Under the pieces are notes generated by a model. That model did not search any database, was not told where the DNA came from, and saw only the letters and a list, made by a program, of their open reading frames with translations. Position numbers and translations under genes: made by a program. 64,000 nucleotides of DNA from an uncultured Actinomycetes bacterium (GTDB lineage Bacteria; Actinomycetota; Thermoleophilia; Gaiellales; JAICJC01): contig CAVUSN010000001.1 in assembly GCA_963744065.1 (NCBI GenBank), positions 49,253 through 113,252 of the forward strand. The letters are read 5' to 3'. Below, piece after piece: positions 13,952 to 60,496 of this stretch; positions within the stretch are counted from its first letter, which is position 1, and each line of letters begins with the position of its first letter.

Positions 13952-14377
13952 GTGCTGATCGGCGTGGTCGGAGACCACAACCCGTGGGACGCAGCCAGCG
14001 TGCCCGCAGACCAGCCGCAGCAGACGCTCATTGAGGAACGACCTCCTGGGTCGCGCGCAGCGGCGCTGTACGGATCAGACGAGGTGGTCGAGGACTTCTA
14101 CTGCAACTACGGGCTCAACCCGGACTACCGGCCTGCGTTCGAGCGGGCCGGGCTGCGGGTGAGCGGCGTCGGAGGCGACGGCGAGGTGCGGATCGTCGAG
14201 CTCCCGCGGCACCCCTTCTTCCTGGCAACGCTCTTCTGCTTCCAGACCCGCTCGACGGACCGGACGCACCCGCTGGTGGCGGGCTTCGTCCAGGTGGTAC
14301 ACGCGCGGCGGCCTGAGCGGGCGGACCGGGCGGGCAAGTGCCCCGGGCAGGAATCGAACCTGCGACGCCGGCCTTAG
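13952..14377 (+). pseudogene. stand-alone CTP-synthase C-terminal-like glutamine amidotransferase with its core replaced by a MITE remnant
   Basis: IGVVGDHNP N-terminus and PGSRAAALYG..FYCNYGLNP..HPFFLATLF C-terminus are present. The GTCGG-type nucleophile region is absent. 13983-14044 matches the MITE at 24399-24460. Confidence 0.75.
13983..14049 (+). mobile_element. right-hand fragment of the 174-bp MITE plus CCTGG target
   Basis: 58/62 identity to 24399-24460, followed by CCTGG. Confidence 0.85.
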
Positions 14378-14411
14378 GAGAGCCGCGCTCTATCCTCTGA
14401 GCTACCGGGGC
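14339..14411 (-). tRNA. tRNA-Arg (anticodon CCT)
   Basis: GCCCCGG acceptor stem, TAGCTCAG D-arm, CGGCT-CTCCTAA-GGCCG anticodon arm and GGTTCGATTCC T-arm. CCA is not encoded. Confidence 0.95.
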
Positions 14412-55979: not shown

Positions 55980-56552
55980 ATGATGCTGTCTGACCGCACG
56001 ATCCGTGAGGAGATCGCCGCGGGGCGGATCGGCATCGACCCGTTCGACGACGAGCTGGTGCAGCCGTGCTCGGTGGACGTCCGTGTGGGCAGCGCATTCC
56101 GGGTGTTCCGCAACTCCCGCTACCCGTACATCGATGTGCGCGAGCCGATGGAGGACCTGACCGAGCTGGTCACCGTCGCTCCCGGCGAGGCGTTCATTCT
56201 GCACCCTGGGGAGTTCGTGCTGGGGGTGGTGCTGGAGCGGATCAGGCTGCCCGCCGACATCGTCGCCACCCTGGACGGCAAGAGCTCGCTGGGCCGGCTG
56301 GGGCTGGTCGTGCACCAGACCGCGGGCGTGGTCGACGCCGGCTTCGACGGCCACATCACGCTGGAGCTGGCCAACGTCGCCAACCTGCCGATCACGGTCT
56401 ACCCGCAGATGCGAATCGCCCAGCTCAGCTTCATGACCATGACCACCCCGGCAGACCGGCCGTACGGGTCAGGTGATCTGGGCTCGAAGTACCAGGGCCA
56501 GGCCGAGCCCACTCCCAGCAAGTACCACCTCAACTTCCCGCGGCCGGCATGA
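55980..56552 (+). CDS. dcd: dCTP deaminase
   Basis: MLSDRTI, QP.SVD, LHPGEFVLG, GKSSLGRLGL, D.GF.G.ITLEL and SKYQGQ. Confidence 0.95.
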   Translation: MMLSDRTIREEIAAGRIGIDPFDDELVQPCSVDVRVGSAFRVFRNSRYPYIDVREPMEDLTELVTVAPGEAFILHPGEFVLGVVLERIRLPADIVATLDGKSSLGRLGLVVHQTAGVVDAGFDGHITLELANVANLPITVYPQMRIAQLSFMTMTTPADRPYGSGDLGSKYQGQAEPTPSKYHLNFPRPA

Positions 56553-57391
56553 GGGTGCTGGTGACAGGCTCGAGCGGCTACGTGGGCCGCCAGCTGTGCG
56601 CCCGCCTGGAGGCGGACGGCCACCAGGTGATGCCCTTCTCGCGCGCGACCGGGGGCGACGTGCGCGACCGCGACGCGGTGTTCGCGGCCGTCCGCGAGGC
56701 CGAGGCGGTGTGCCACCTGGTGGCGATCCTGGACGGCACCGACGAGCAGTTCCAGGCCATCAACGCCGATGGCGCCCGAAACGTGGTGGAGGCCGCCCAG
56801 GCCGCCGGCGGCCGCCGCTTGCTGCACATGAGCGCGGCCGGGGTGAACGAGCGCAACGCCTCCCGCACCCGCTACTGGCGAACCAAGTGGGAGGCCAAGC
56901 AGACGGTGATGGCGAGCGAGCTGGAGTGGACGGTGTTCGAGCCCAGCTTCGTGTTTGGCGCAGGCGGCGGGGCGCTGCGCGAGTTCGAAGGGCTGCTGCG
57001 GTTGCCGGTGGTGCCGGTGGCCGGGGACGGCCGCTACCGGCACCAGCCGGTGTGGGTGGGCGACGTGGCGGCCTGCTTCAGCGCAGCGCTGTCGCGTCCG
57101 CACACGGTCGGCCAGCGCTACGAACTGGGCGGCCCGCAGGTGTTCACCTTCGACGAGTTGCTGGACGAACTGGCCCGGGTCACCGGCCGCCGGCCACGGC
57201 CCAAGCTGCACGCACCGGTCGCCTTCGCCAAGGCCCAGACCGTGCTTCTCCGCCACCTGCCGCCACCGCTTCGCGCCACCTCCGAGCAGATCGAGATGCT
57301 GGTCGCCGGAACGGAGTGCGACATCGAGCCGATGCGCTCGCAGCTGGGGGTCGACCCGGCCTCGCTGGGCGAGGCGTACACCCGGGCTTGA
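56549..57391 (+). CDS. NAD(P)-binding atypical SDR (NDUFA9-like)
   Basis: VTGSSGYVG, Y.RTKWEA, QPVWVGDVA and YELGGP. Confidence 0.85.
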   Translation: MRVLVTGSSGYVGRQLCARLEADGHQVMPFSRATGGDVRDRDAVFAAVREAEAVCHLVAILDGTDEQFQAINADGARNVVEAAQAAGGRRLLHMSAAGVNERNASRTRYWRTKWEAKQTVMASELEWTVFEPSFVFGAGGGALREFEGLLRLPVVPVAGDGRYRHQPVWVGDVAACFSAALSRPHTVGQRYELGGPQVFTFDELLDELARVTGRRPRPKLHAPVAFAKAQTVLLRHLPPPLRATSEQIEMLVAGTECDIEPMRSQLGVDPASLGEAYTRA

Positions 57392-57417
57392 TCGTCGTCA
57401 CCGGGCGTTGCTACGAT
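57388..57417 (+). promoter_or_regulatory. SigA-type promoter with extended -10
   Basis: TTGATC-N18-TACGAT with TG one base upstream of the -10 box. Confidence 0.55.
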
Positions 57418-57423
57418 GGGGCT

Positions 57424-57607
57424 ACCACGGAAAGGAGGTGGTCCGACTTGGTAGAAGGCTCAAGACGGGCGAGTGGAGGTGCTCGCGGGTAGGGGCGAGT
57501 CCCTGGACCCAGGGGGAATCGCTGCAGCCGGCGTTGGGACAGCCTCCGCCACCTCCGGGTGGTCGGGAAGAGCAATCGCCGCTACCTAATACAAGCGATC
57601 TCACCGT
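57424..57607 (+). ncRNA. candidate ~185-nt rod-like ncRNA (6S/Ms1-like or anti-SD-mimic sRNA)
   Basis: Nested 5'-3' pairings read by eye along its length, a promoter upstream, a strong hairpin downstream and no credible long ORF. Confidence 0.5.
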
Positions 57608-57643
57608 CACGGGGCGGGTTGGCTCGAGCCAGCCCGCCCCGTG
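57608..57643. terminator. 16-bp GC-rich hairpin, likely terminator (possibly bidirectional)
   Basis: CACGGGGCGGGTTGGC-TCGA-GCCAGCCCGCCCCGTG. Confidence 0.75.
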
Positions 57644-57715
57644 CCAATTCTGAAGCACAGGTGCCGGGTGCCGCACGGCGAGGCGCCGCATGCGGGTGCG
57701 CTGAGGCCAGCCTCG

Positions 57716-58453
57716 CTACATGCCCCAGCGGTCCTGGCCCAGCAGTTGGAGCTCGGGGCCCGCTTCAGCAAGGGTGGAGACGGCGCCGTCGCCGCGCTCA
57801 TCCACCCGCACCGACACGGTGCGGGCCAGCCGGTCCTCGACCTCGACCCGCAGCCCGCCGTCACGGGTTAGCCGTGTGACGGCCTCGTCACCCGTGCCCG
57901 AATGCTCGTCCACGGTGTAGCCCGACCCGGGCTCGACGCCGGCCCTGGCCATGTAATGCAGGATCTCCTCGGCCTCGTTCTCCAGCCGCAGCACGGTGAT
58001 CCGGCTGCCCGCCGGCACAGCCGGAATCGGCTCGCCGGGCTCGCGCGGATAGTCGCCGATCGGATGCCCGTGCGGGCACGTGCGCACCTCGCCGATCATC
58101 TCCAGCATCTTGGCCTCGAGCCGCGGCGAGATGGAGTGCTCCATGGCGTGCGCCTCCTCGTGCACGTCGTCCCAGGGCAACCCCATGATCTTGACCAGGT
58201 ACGCCTCGACCAGCCGGTGGCGGGCCACGATCCGCTCAGCCACCTCCCGGCCGCTAACCGAGAAGTTGATCAGCTTGTGCTCGTCGCGGCTGACCAGGCC
58301 GTCATCCACCAGCCGCCGCAGCATCTCGCTGGCCGACGGCTGGGAGACGCGCAGCGCGCGGGCCAGGTTGGCCTGGGTGCGTTCGATCCCCGCCTCGTAC
58401 ATCCAGTAGATGCTTTCCAGATACTCCTGGGCCGCCTCTGAAAGCGTGTCCAT
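57716..58453 (-). CDS. DtxR/MntR family metal-dependent regulator
   Basis: QEYLESIY, S.PS.SEM..RL, RHRLVE.YL, VHEEAHAMEH, CPHGHPI and a FeoA-like tail. Confidence 0.92.
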   Translation of the reverse strand: MDTLSEAAQEYLESIYWMYEAGIERTQANLARALRVSQPSASEMLRRLVDDGLVSRDEHKLINFSVSGREVAERIVARHRLVEAYLVKIMGLPWDDVHEEAHAMEHSISPRLEAKMLEMIGEVRTCPHGHPIGDYPREPGEPIPAVPAGSRITVLRLENEAEEILHYMARAGVEPGSGYTVDEHSGTGDEAVTRLTRDGGLRVEVEDRLARTVSVRVDERGDGAVSTLAEAGPELQLLGQDRWGM

Positions 58454-58494
58454 CCCACCCTCCAATAGAGAAATGCCCTGCCGCCAGCAGGACG

Positions 58495-58797
58495 TCAGAC
58501 CGTGACGAACACCTCGCCGTCGCGCACCACCACCGGGAAGGCCTCCACGTCCTCGGTGGCCGGAAGCGACAGCACCGCCCCGGTGCGCAGGTCGAAGCGC
58601 GCGCCGTGCCTGGGGCAGATGACGTCGAAGCCCTCGCGATCGCCCTCGCACAGCGGCCCGTCATCGTGGCTGCAGCGGTCCTCGATGGCATACAGCTCGT
58701 CGCCGATCCGGTACACGCCCAGGAACAGCGACCCCGACTGGACGATGGTCACGCCGCCGTCCGCCAGCTCATCGAGCCGGCCTACCCGGACGTCCAC
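58495..58797 (-). CDS. Rieske-type ferredoxin
   Basis: CSH...CPRHGARFDLRTG. Confidence 0.92.
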   Translation of the reverse strand: MDVRVGRLDELADGGVTIVQSGSLFLGVYRIGDELYAIEDRCSHDDGPLCEGDREGFDVICPRHGARFDLRTGAVLSLPATEDVEAFPVVVRDGEVFVTV

Positions 58798-59207
58798 GTG
58801 ATGCCGCTCGCGTCCTCGCCCCAGTCGGGCGGCTGGTCGCCCTCCAACTCGGCCAGCGCCACCTTGAGCACACCCACCGAGAGCAGGGCGCACTTGAGCC
58901 GCAGCGGCATCAGCGGGATGCCCAGCTCATCCAGCACGTCCTCCTTGCCCAGCCTCTGCACCTCGGACACCGGCTTTCCCTTGACCGCCTCCGAGATCAT
59001 CGACGCGGCAGCCTGGCTGATCGCGCAGCCCTGGCCGTTGTAGCGCACGTCCTTGACCACGCCGTCCTCGACCAGCAGCTCGACCGAGAGCTCGTCGCCG
59101 CACAGTGGGTTGACCCCCTCGGCCGACACCGTGGGGTGCTCGAGGTGCCCGCTGTTGCGAGGGTGGTTGTAGTGGTCGAGGATGTTCTCGCGGTAGAGGT
59201 CGTCCAT
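58782..59207 (-). CDS. sufU: SufU/IscU-type Fe-S assembly protein
   Basis: LYRENILDHY.HPRN, NPLCGD, GCAISQA and RLKCALL. Confidence 0.92.
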   Translation of the reverse strand: MDDLYRENILDHYNHPRNSGHLEHPTVSAEGVNPLCGDELSVELLVEDGVVKDVRYNGQGCAISQAAASMISEAVKGKPVSEVQRLGKEDVLDELGIPLMPLRLKCALLSVGVLKVALAELEGDQPPDWGEDASGITWTSG

Positions 59208-59248
59208 CCTGCAAGGAAGTCTATCTGGCGTCTTCAGACGCCTCGGGG

Positions 59249-60496
59249 TCACACCTTGAACGTGCGCTGCACCTTGGTCAGACCTGTGGCCAGGGCGTCC
59301 AGGTCGTCCACCGTGTTGTAGAGGTAGACCGAGGCCCTGGCGGTCGCGACCAGCCCGAAGTGGCGCATGGCCGGCTGCGTGCAGTGGTGGCCGGCCCGCA
59401 CGCACACCCCGTCGGTGTCCAGCACCTGGGCCACGTCGTGGGCGTGCACACCGTCGACGGTGAAGGACAGCACCCCGGCCCGGCCCGGCGGCGGCGGCCC
59501 GTACACGGTCACCCCGCGCAGGTCGCTCAGCAGCCCGTACCCGTACTCCGTGAGGGCCTGCTCGTGGGCGTGGATCTGCTCCAGCCCGATGCCGTTGAGA
59601 TAGTCGATGGCGGTGCCGAACGCCGTCACCTCGGCCACCGGCGGCACGCCAGCCTCGAACTTGTAGGGCAGCTCGTTCCAGGTGGTGCGGTCGAGCCCCA
59701 CCGAGGCGATCTGGCCGCCGCCGGTCAGGAACGGGTCCATGTCGTGCAGCAGGGCCTCCCGGCCCCACAGCGCGCCGACCCCGGGGCCGCACATCTTGTG
59801 GCCGGAGATGGCGTAGAAGTCGCAGCCCAGCGCGGCCACGTCGACGGGCCGGTGAGGCGCCGCCTGAGCGCCGTCCACCACCATCACCGCGCCCCGCTCG
59901 TGCGCCCACCGAGACAGCGCCGGGATGTCGTTGATCGCGCCCAGCGAGTTGGACACATGCCCGGCCGCCACCAGCTTGACGTTCTCGACCGCGTCCAGCG
60001 CGGCCAGCGACTCGGGATCCAGCTCGCCGTTCTCGCCCAGGCGCAGGTAGTGCATGGTCGCGCCGGTGCGCTGGGCCAAGAGCTGCCACGGCACCAGGTT
60101 GGAGTGGTGCTCCATCTCGGTGGAGACGATGGCGTCGCCGGGGCCGATGAACTTGAGCCCGTAGCCGTAGGCGACCAGGTTCAGGCCCTCGGTCGAGTTG
60201 CGGACGAAGATCACCTCGGTGCGGGAGCTCGCTCCCAGCAGCGCTGCGACCTTGTCGCGAGTGGCCTCATAGCGCTGGGTGGCAACCTCGCCCAGCGAGT
60301 ACACGGCCCGGTGCACCGCCGCATAGGACGTCTCGTAGACGTCGACCAGGGTGTCGATCACTGCCCGCGGCTTCTGCGCGGACGCGGCCGAGTCCAGGTA
60401 GTGCAGCGGCCCGCCGCCCGGCGGATTGGCCAGGATCGGAAAGTCCAGCTTCAGCCGCTCGGCGTCCAGCGGCGTCTTGGCAGGCGCGACAGCCAT
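59249..60496 (-). CDS. sufS: cysteine desulfurase
   Basis: YLDSAASAQKP, MEHHSN, DGAQ, SGHKM and RAGHHC. Confidence 0.95.
   Translation of the reverse strand: MAVAPAKTPLDAERLKLDFPILANPPGGGPLHYLDSAASAQKPRAVIDTLVDVYETSYAAVHRAVYSLGEVATQRYEATRDKVAALLGASSRTEVIFVRNSTEGLNLVAYGYGLKFIGPGDAIVSTEMEHHSNLVPWQLLAQRTGATMHYLRLGENGELDPESLAALDAVENVKLVAAGHVSNSLGAINDIPALSRWAHERGAVMVVDGAQAAPHRPVDVAALGCDFYAISGHKMCGPGVGALWGREALLHDMDPFLTGGGQIASVGLDRTTWNELPYKFEAGVPPVAEVTAFGTAIDYLNGIGLEQIHAHEQALTEYGYGLLSDLRGVTVYGPPPPGRAGVLSFTVDGVHAHDVAQVLDTDGVCVRAGHHCTQPAMRHFGLVATARASVYLYNTVDDLDALATGLTKVQRTFKV

Follow-up and report, generated by a model that had tools for sequence, protein, structure and literature searches.

A probable mini-mRNA of the Ms_IGR-5 family carrying the complement of the 16S rRNA tail in an uncultured Thermoleophilia bacterium

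The window analyzed here, a stretch of 64,000 nucleotides (64 kb) from an uncultured Actinomycetes bacterium of the Thermoleophilia (contig CAVUSN010000001.1 of assembly GCA_963744065.1, which comprises 3.47 Mb at 70% G+C), contains between two convergent genes a gap, 57392-57715, in which an initial annotation had placed a structured RNA with a complement of the 16S rRNA 3' end, a second Shine-Dalgarno (SD) copy and a very short open reading frame (ORF). Our analysis indicates that this gap probably holds a stand-alone, single-copy mini-mRNA of about 225 nucleotides (nt), a diverged and domain-expanded member of the Ms_IGR-5 family that would be of the same kind as the small mRNAs rreB and rreR. 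The features of the locus are collected in Table 1.

Table 1. Features of the intergenic unit and its two neighbors (positions are those of the window).
Feature	Position	Strand	Remarks
NAD-dependent epimerase/NmrA-like ORF	56549-57391	+	Upstream neighbor, from translation
-35-like hexamer TTGATC	57388-57393	+	Overlaps TGA stop of the epimerase-like gene; CTTG moderately conserved in homologues
Extended -10: TG 57409-57410, TGC + TACGAT 57412-57417	57409-57417	+	18-nt spacer from TTGATC
Predicted RNA, about 225 nt	57424 to about 57650	+	From conserved 5' A to just past the terminator; ends predicted
5'-terminal hairpin ACCAC/GUGGU, loop GGAAAGGAG	57424-57442	+	RNAalifold, 33 sequences; paired cells 96% in alignment A3, 84% in alignment A6
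Extended SD, complement of the whole free 16S 3' tail	57429-57444	+	16 nt: 14 Watson-Crick + 2 G.U
Micro-ORF UUG + 13 codons + UAG (14 sense codons), read M/L-VEGSRRASGGARG	57448-57492	+	ORF list and homologues
Internal SD-like GGAGGUG	57475-57481	+	9 nt before stop; its GGUG is the 5' strand of P1b
5' strands P1b GGUG, P1 UCGC, P2 GGGUAG (57487-57492, holds the stop codon), P3 GGCGA	57478-57498	+	Long-range helices
Inner domain: P4, small hairpins and variable hairpin	57499-57575	+	Reduced or absent in 110-135-nt forms of other orders and phyla
P4 UCCC/GGGA	57500-03 / 57536-39	+	Covaries, UA->CG in 8/33
Variable hairpin with CCUCC/CCACCUCC	57541-57575	+	Kept by covariation, not sequence
3' strands P3' UCGCC, P2' CUACCU, P1' GCGA, P1b' CACC	57576-57605	+	Close the long-range helices
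Asymmetric 7-nt bulge AAUACAA between P2' and P1'	57588-57594	+	Family consensus AAUCCAA
Terminator hairpin, 16 bp, one G.U, loop UCGA	57608-57643	+	U tract weak
DtxR/IdeR-family regulator	57716-58651	-	Downstream, convergent; checked against Pfam

The intergenic unit, its reading frame and its fold

The 5' part of the unit carries an extended SD sequence. The genome's own 16S rRNA ends in ...GGATCACCTCCTTTCT, and against this native end the earlier claim that GAAAGGAGGTGGTCC, at 57430-57444, matches the complement of the 16S 3' end at 14 of 15 positions, the mismatch being a G.U pair, holds; the addition of G57429 extends the pairing to all 16 bases of the tail, with a longest perfect Watson-Crick run of 11 nt. 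Full 16-nt tail pairing was found at just two of the 10,613 GGAGG sites on both strands of the assembly, namely the antisense of the 16S gene and 57429-57444, and the runners-up, at 2 sites, reach 14 nt. The 16-nt complement exceeds chance. Three nucleotides (GAC) lie between its end and the TTG start in the window copy, and in some relatives in another phylum GGUCCA runs straight into GUG or UUG. The SD string of the window did not occur in the text of the papers searched.

The promoter boxes read initially as TTGATC-N18-TACGAT with an upstream TG are in place. They match the consensus at 8/12 positions in the window copy, and a consensus scan of 57000-58000 flagged no promoter-like and no terminator-like site. 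Among homologues, 20/20 sequences of the same family keep TTG-TA---T of the extended -10 unchanged and equally spaced, and the 33 order-level homologues have a TAnnnT box with the same spacing. The first A of the predicted RNA (57424), 7 nt past the -10 box, is invariant in 33/33 sequences and, as judged from this alignment, is the likely transcription start. A strong GC-rich hairpin occupies the terminator position in 33/33 order-level homologues, most of them with a T-rich tail on the + strand; the window copy has no T-run after its hairpin. The conserved -10 box and the terminal hairpin with its T-rich tails thus fix the strand as + and favor a promoter-to-terminator unit. Contigs from four soil RNA-library runs, belonging to four studies, cover 57437-57606 and include a 161-nt contig with 5 differences and a 183-nt contig (depth 22.7), by which a transcript of the window copy is only hinted at; the flanking genes and, bar one short piece, 57300-57436 are without contig cover, gaps that carry no evidential weight.

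Copy number and context were evaluated by BLAST and with two covariance models (CM), R1, made from 33 sequences of the window's own order, and R2, made from 25 short forms. The unit is single-copy in its own genome and occurs once per genome elsewhere, so that the multi-copy, dispersed distribution that would mark a repeat element was not seen. Plasmid and phage collections held no sequence similar to it. The neighbors of the RNA vary by lineage (epimerase-like, methyltransferase, FMN reductase, DtxR, MarR, MMPL and, in two loci, ribosomal protein L13), and this, together with the convergent orientation of the downstream gene in the window, makes the unit a stand-alone gene and not a leader.

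The 14-codon TTG frame, the second GGAGGTG, CCACCTCC (57549-57556) and the 16-bp hairpin of the initial annotation are all present as placed, and the frame is kept throughout the family. An in-frame ORF was found in 171/171 distinct sequences selected by pattern (SD box plus GGAGGT-N9-TAR), with the start 5-10 nt after the SD and in frame with the conserved stop, as well as in 76/76 CM-found loci and in 20/20 loci of Ms_IGR-5 type (19 by script, 1 by eye). In the CM-found set, 66 ORFs with a canonical start were found by script and ten by eye, nine of the latter having an in-frame ATT, ATC, ATA or CTG at the same place and one a TTG with an altered SD. Start codons among the pattern-selected sequences were TTG (85), GTG (72), ATG (10), CTG (3) and ATA (1). 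The ORF has 10-17 codons family-wide (10, 11, 12, 13, 14, 15 or 17 in the pattern-selected set) and the frame is kept, which means that insertions and deletions come in threes. The stop varies among UAG, UGA and UAA, its P2 partner changing alongside. The internal GGAGGT is invariant in alignments A1-A3, and GAGGU lies 9 or 10 nt ahead of the stop in every CM-found locus having the motif, where it is read in two frames according to clade, as ..SGG.. (the case of the window copy) or as ..(L/C/R)EV... Codons 2-4 are equally variable at all three positions, and from codon 5 on every position is frozen; the peptide shows no similarity between clades. These comparisons indicate that frame, start and stop are under selection, and since they are always kept while the peptide is unconserved across clades, the act of translation appears to count more than its product.

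AUG is a minority start family-wide, and near-cognate codons (AUU, AUC, AUA, CUG) stand at the usual SD distance in L192, L209, L215, L225, L226, L230, L231, L233, L194 and L278-L280, a hint at deliberately weak initiation or at sensitivity to initiation factor 3. Three weak R2 matches in the phylum of genome G325 (L248, L249, L250) are without the internal GAGGU and have a frame about 21 nt longer; they encode Cys-rich 14-15-mers (LDSYSCAGDCWGCDA and similar) and keep the 3' strand AAAUCCAAACAG..CACC. Two further ideas about the frame were discarded. A +1 frameshift, read-through or second ORF after the internal SD is contradicted, by eye, by the lack of a suitably spaced start and by length changes in the variable region that do not preserve the frame; sensing specific to release factor 1, which would require UAG, is ruled out by the UGA and UAA stops.

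The fold is more stable than expected from composition: the + strand reaches -119.8 kcal/mol (z -4.05, 0/200 shuffles as stable), and the - strand a z of -2.80 (3/200 shuffles). RNAalifold on the 33 sequences gives the 5' hairpin, P1 (UCGC/GCGA), P2 (GGGUAG/CUACCU), P3 (GCGA/UCGC) and P4 (UCCC/GGGA), to which P1b (GGUG 57478-81 / CACC 57602-05) was added in this analysis. In alignment A3 (100 sequences; P1 was absent from the model used to make it), 90.7% of the cells were paired vs 83.4% in shuffles, 19 pairs showed double changes vs 12.4 +/- 1.2 (0/500 shuffles reach 19), double-change cells numbered 267 vs 84.8, and slid controls gave 35-50% pairing. The family-wide alignment A6 (fitted to model R2 and comprising 100 sequences of at least three phyla) had 86.7% paired cells vs 68.8% in shuffles and 386 double-change cells vs 128.6, with double changes in 6/9 P1 pairs and in 11/11 P2/P3 pairs and 34-47% pairing in slid controls; the structure itself helped to shape the alignments behind such pair counts, and the comparison with shuffles is inflated by relatedness. 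MAFFT plus RNAalifold gave no usable structure on the short forms.

This structure differs from the rod of eight nested helices that had been read by eye. GTCCC/GGGAC coincides with a covariation-supported helix, and the other seven pairings do not: the CTACC assigned to GGTAG (57450) pairs instead with GGGTAG at the stop codon (57487-57492), and the CTTG/CAAG-type pairing is without family-wide support. The proposed competition of two SD copies for one anti-SD depends on CCACCTCC, which is lineage-specific: it lies in the variable hairpin and is unconserved outside close relatives. A local hairpin within the ORF that exposes the internal SD in its loop appeared in 17/50 local folds under a strict test and could, in these models, act as a switch. 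A pseudoknot or masking of the start by the AAUCC bulge, which would correspond to the CTTG/CAAG pairing of the initial annotation, was rejected, own pairs reaching -5.85 kcal/mol vs -5.63 for mismatched ones (53/100, Wilcoxon p 0.23).

Family membership and comparison with known small RNAs

Within the same family of bacteria, BLAST detected the RNA in 21/24 genomes (E<=1e-49, 78-92% identity), the three misses being 65-72% complete, and it did so in 11/16 genomes of the same order (E<=3e-8). The search for homologues in the class, suggested by the initial annotation, was productive: R1 gave one match each in 63/151 genomes, covering most sampled genomes of some families and 0/74 genomes of three others. 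R1 also matches G272:C26:10123-10249, in another class, where the Rfam model of Ms_IGR-5, RF02471, gives 43.7 bits. R2 scores the window copy at 55.7-64.3 bits (55.7 at E 9e-10) and finds one copy per genome in 59/151 Actinomycetota, 37/101 genomes of a first other phylum and 38/101 of a second, counts that include the unpublished genomes G185, G201, G229, G267 and G296 (Actinomycetota) and G442 (second other phylum). Since the family is single-copy and occurs in 59/151 sampled Actinomycetota and in more than a third of the genomes sampled from two other phyla, it probably serves a housekeeping purpose that involves contact with the ribosome.

At least 118 of the stretches among the pattern matches listed lie in named genomes, mostly metagenome-assembled genomes of Gaiellaceae, Gaiellales, Thermoleophilia and Miltoncostaeaceae, and some in records titled Latescibacterota and Eisenbacteria. 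In the Latescibacterota-titled records L081, L103, L107 and L142 the transcript seems to run on through a second conserved, hairpin-rich stretch to a terminator, about 130 nt past the RNA core, and in two loci among them rplM (L13) lies about 390 nt downstream on the same strand.

The RF02471 model detects 39/151 genomes of the Actinomycetota sample (three unpublished), 19 of them above its cut-off (one unpublished, G201), and R2 matches all 19 loci that lie above it (18/18 when G201 is left aside). In turn, RF02471 matches 12/20 of the homologue loci found with R1 and R2, two of them, at 54.8 and 46.9 bits, above the cut-off of 45, which is a detection threshold and not a biological feature. 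Read from 5' to 3', the window copy, the RF02471 consensus and loci L267-L286 agree: an initial A is followed by the SD box GGAGGUGGUCC, a short frame, GAGGUG, the stop within P2, an AAUYCC bulge, CACC and the terminator. On these sequence grounds, the window RNA appears to be a diverged Ms_IGR-5 member with an inserted inner domain, which the RF02471 model misses and which joins the family through the bridging models.

Like the window RNA, Ms_IGR-5 has ACAC or ACCAC..GGAAGGAGGUGGUCC, a start codon, a frame of 12-15 codons, GAGGUGGCUGC, a stop in GCUAGC, GGCGAAUUCC, CACC and a terminator, the loci that score highest with RF02471 having a TTG or ATG start and 12 codons; it is also single-copy and intergenic, and the core is the same base for base in the window copy. 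The latter differs by its extra inner domain of about 75 nt and by reading ..SGG.. instead of ..EV... The RF02471 consensus structure is without the P1/P1b helix (GGUGGCUGC with GCAGUCACC); in it, the GGUGGU of the first SD is paired with GCUGCC and GCAGUCACC is unpaired.

According to the accessible parts of the sources cited in this and the next paragraph, Rfam describes RF02471 as 'Actinobacteria sRNA' ('Gene; sRNA', that is, small RNA), corresponding to IGR-5 of M. smegmatis, which in strain mc2155 lies between MSMEG_5794 and MSMEG_5795, and to SLIV_16488 of S. lividans, in which it was validated by RNA-seq (PMC8079986). The M. smegmatis RNA is NAD-capped, starts with A and is referred to as 'validated but yet uncharacterized' (bioRxiv 10.1101/2021.12.14.472595), it was found again as ncMSMEG15794c (PMC10454040), and 'significant ribosomal reads' were reported on MS_IGR-5 homologues of M. 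abscessus and M. smegmatis (PMC4974804). The accessible text of the Ms_IGR-5 literature searched calls the RNA uncharacterized and mentions neither the ORF nor the 16S complement.

The closest described design is that of rreB of B. japonicum, a 165-nt stand-alone mRNA in which a 17-nt perfect complement of the 16S end precedes a 14-codon GTG frame (Hahn et al. 2016, RNA Biol 14:1353, PMC5711450). This RNA co-sediments with 30S subunits, its translation is weak, being hampered by the long SD and the GTG, and replacement of GUG by UAG lengthens its half-life from 10 to 37 min; synthetic RreB and RreR are unstructured, and in the text available rre genes are reported only from four alpha-proteobacterial orders (PMC5711450). 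rreB and rreR are stand-alone RNAs of about 165 nt with their own promoter and terminator, and such a unit is indicated here by the -10 box and the terminator conserved in the 33 homologues; their 16S complement of 16-17 nt lies partly within the first hairpin, and one of at least 16 nt is found directly upstream of the ORF in the window, at 57429-57444; their small ORF of 14 or 18 codons has a non-AUG start and a peptide conserved only within clades, against 14 codons in the window; and their genomic context is variable. In contrast, the complement of rre genes is perfect and extends to the GTG's first base, while that of the window has two G.U pairs and is followed by a 3-nt gap and a UUG start. 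The rre descriptions, as far as accessible, mention neither a second SD-like box nor a long-range helix over the stop. Binding to 30S subunits, weak translation and decay that depends on the start codon are experimental results for rreB and would hold for the window RNA by analogy.

A second Rfam family, CC2171 (RF01867; Caulobacter, Methylobacteriaceae), starts with GAAAGGAGGUGAUCC, ends in a terminator and is about 159 nt long; in the sources available in part it is expressed in Caulobacter and Methylorubrum, with no function assigned. CC2171 probably represents the rre genes in Caulobacterales. The literature searched contained no link between Ms_IGR-5 and rre genes, although supplements may differ.

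Other RNAs share single traits with the window unit. In the STAB-SD of Bacillus thuringiensis cryIIIA, a 5'-proximal GAAAGGAGG, base-paired to the 3' end of the 16S rRNA, shields the transcript instead of functioning in normal initiation, but it belongs to a long mRNA leader without a dedicated micro-ORF or a conserved downstream fold. Dual-function small RNAs and leader-peptide attenuators such as SgrS/SgrT, RNAIII/hld and trpL combine a short translated frame with a structured regulatory RNA, translation competing with helices; unlike them, the window RNA is one for which no regulated downstream gene, known base-pairing target or conserved peptide was found.

Explanations weighed and a proposed mode of action

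The explanation we consider the likeliest is that the window carries a mini-mRNA of the kind of rreB and rreR, which by analogy with them would bind 30S subunits tightly, be translated weakly and be turned over in a ribosome-dependent manner. The ribosome-sequestering RNA and the fold-back micropeptide mRNA, named as alternatives in the initial annotation, both come close to this ribosome-binding mini-mRNA of rre type, the reading that the evidence supports best.

Several points weigh against this explanation. The RF02471 model gives no match on the window (RF02471 is not among the 12 Rfam matches on 57300-57760 at E<=10, and in the own genome it has none at E<=1e-4), so that membership in Ms_IGR-5 depends on the bridging models built here, and the seed of R2 includes L194, a near-threshold RF02471 locus. 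As for the rre genes, the CC2171 model, used as their stand-in, stays below its cut-off of 75 (17.7 bits for the window copy, 20-25 for 6/20 homologue loci), with a match that spans SD and terminator only. The complement of the window, with its two G.U pairs, ends 3 nt short of the start codon that the perfect 17-mer of rreB reaches. Changes in the 5' hairpin are almost all one-sided (GU<->AU) and do not prove it by covariation, and to this must be added the fitting and relatedness mentioned above for the pair counts. In the window copy, the conserved fold (-111.0 kcal/mol) is less stable than an unconstrained minimum free energy structure (-117.8) in which the lineage-specific CCUCC arm takes up both SDs, and an SD-masked conformer particular to this lineage may therefore exist, according to these models. 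The soil RNA-library contigs may come from DNA or from close relatives and show neither strand nor ends. The C-terminus of the peptide is conserved within clades, which leaves room for a role of its own. In the accessible text of Hahn et al. (PMC5711450), overexpression of rreB had no effect on growth. Finally, the re-capture of the anti-SD by the internal GGAGGU, part of the mechanism proposed below, is something we purely infer.

The idea that the 10-17-residue peptide is itself the functional product, the RNA structure tuning its synthesis, is unlikely. The ORF is kept universally, C-termini are conserved within clades (GSGGTSG, SGGGCS/R, GTLEVxGR, CEVAAR), and RreB and RreR, in the text available, are conserved inside theirs (Hahn et al., PMC5711450). 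Yet no similarity remains between clades, which read the conserved nucleotides in one or the other of two frames, variation in codons 2-4 is not concentrated at third positions, and the conserved parts of the peptide correspond to helix strands that covary with their partners; moreover, the unstructured RreB and RreR peptides are reported, in the same partial text, to have no growth effect when overproduced (PMC5711450).

A non-coding small RNA that acts by base pairing, with SD-like boxes and frame as by-products of constraints on the RNA, is what the annotation of Ms_IGR-5 implies, and the classification in Rfam as 'Gene; sRNA' is in keeping with it. Nucleotides are more conserved than the peptide, GGA GGU is unchanged at synonymous sites, and the conserved single-stranded AAUCC bulge could act as a seed. 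This is nevertheless quite unlikely: the frame is kept in every copy examined despite varied start, stop, length and frame through GAGGU, and the partial sources place ribosomal reads on MS_IGR-5 homologues (PMC4974804) and show binding of rreB to 30S subunits (PMC5711450).

Very improbable is a role as a cis-acting leader or attenuator, or as an antisense RNA that regulates the convergent DtxR-family gene by read-through. A short ORF, alternative hairpins and a terminator would suit such a role, local folds of the ORF compete with P1, and in three loci of one genus (L034, L035, L037) a co-oriented gene begins right past the terminator; against this stand the convergent downstream gene of the window, the differing neighbors between lineages and a terminator hairpin that does not overlap the switching strands of P1 and P2.

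The RNA polymerase-binding RNA of 6S or Ms1 type inferred in the initial annotation is hardly credible, for although the size of about 200 nt and the stable fold (z -4.05) would fit and RF00013 finds no 6S RNA in the own genome or in four genomes of the same family, Rfam gave no relevant match on the region at gathering scores and no 6S or Ms1 match at E<=10, covariation supports a 5' hairpin followed by a branched domain closed by P1-P4 and not a rod with a central bubble, 6S RNAs have no use for the conserved SD, translated-looking ORF and stop, a complete genome of the same order has a weak 6S candidate away from its mini-mRNA locus (L042, G034:C1:1585988-1586146; 28.2 bits vs a cut-off of 46.4), and mycobacteria carry Ms1 and IGR-5 as separate RNAs in the accessible text (bioRxiv 10.1101/2021.12.14.472595). 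For the window, this settles that the gap is not empty and that it holds no 6S gene.

Returning to the rre-like mini-mRNA, a mode of action can be sketched from rreB and from the geometry of the RNA, whose anatomy and selected frame and helices are established by the comparisons above. A 30S subunit would dock on the loop-exposed GGAAAGGAG and zip up to a 16-bp SD duplex, being held very tightly, and initiation would be slow at the weak UUG. The ribosome would then have to melt P1b, P1 and P2 before it could read the final five codons and the stop, and once the stop reached the A site, 6 nt would separate the internal GGAGGU from the P-site codon, an initiation-like spacing at which the anti-SD may re-pair. 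Since the ribosome would have to open P1 and P2 and the anti-SD may re-pair, ribosome occupancy and the closed fold would be mutually exclusive, and this would determine how long the RNA lives and how far its conserved 3' strand and AAUCC bulge are exposed. The physiological output could be the sensing or holding of ribosomes, or could involve a partner of the 3' strand.

A broader proposal, which we advance tentatively and with considerable doubt, would unite Ms_IGR-5 and CC2171 with the alpha-proteobacterial rre genes in a single class of 'ribosome-engaging' mini-mRNAs, ancient and spread across phyla, made to be bound and briefly translated and thereby reporting or buffering free, correctly matured ribosomes. 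The full complement of the 16S tail would capture the 30S subunit, the weak start and the helix over the stop would slow the round of translation, and the second SD-like box would re-capture the anti-SD at termination. If this were true, such an RNA could serve as a 'test drive' for ribosomes or as a sensor of free 30S subunits by means of a translation-gated fold and lifetime. What is new in this analysis is the link in design between Ms_IGR-5 and rre, the spread across phyla, a frame that is always kept although its peptide is not conserved, and helix P1/P1b; a small RNA of mycobacteria and streptomycetes thus shows the design so far described only in alpha-proteobacteria. The work also yields search profiles better than the current Rfam model, and M. 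smegmatis IGR-5 and S. lividans SLIV_16488 are testable models.

Neighboring genes and other observations

The 311-aa frame of the DtxR/IdeR-family regulator probably starts too early, its DNA-binding domain beginning at residue 70. Beyond this gene, the minus strand of 57716-60496 carries a Rieske-like ferredoxin ORF (58495-58893), a NifU/IscU-like ORF and a class-V aminotransferase ORF (59249-60496) that, read from its translation, resembles cysteine desulfurase; judged by these translations, the ORFs look like an iron-sulfur cluster gene group beside an iron regulator. The sole Rfam match at gathering score in the whole window is a tRNA gene on the minus strand (14339-14411). Outside the window, on contigs C6, C7 and C8, at least ten near-identical gene starts (AGGAGGUGGUUCCUCAAUGAACGUCUG) have 12-nt complements of the 16S rRNA; they look like a multi-copy gene family, perhaps a mobile element.

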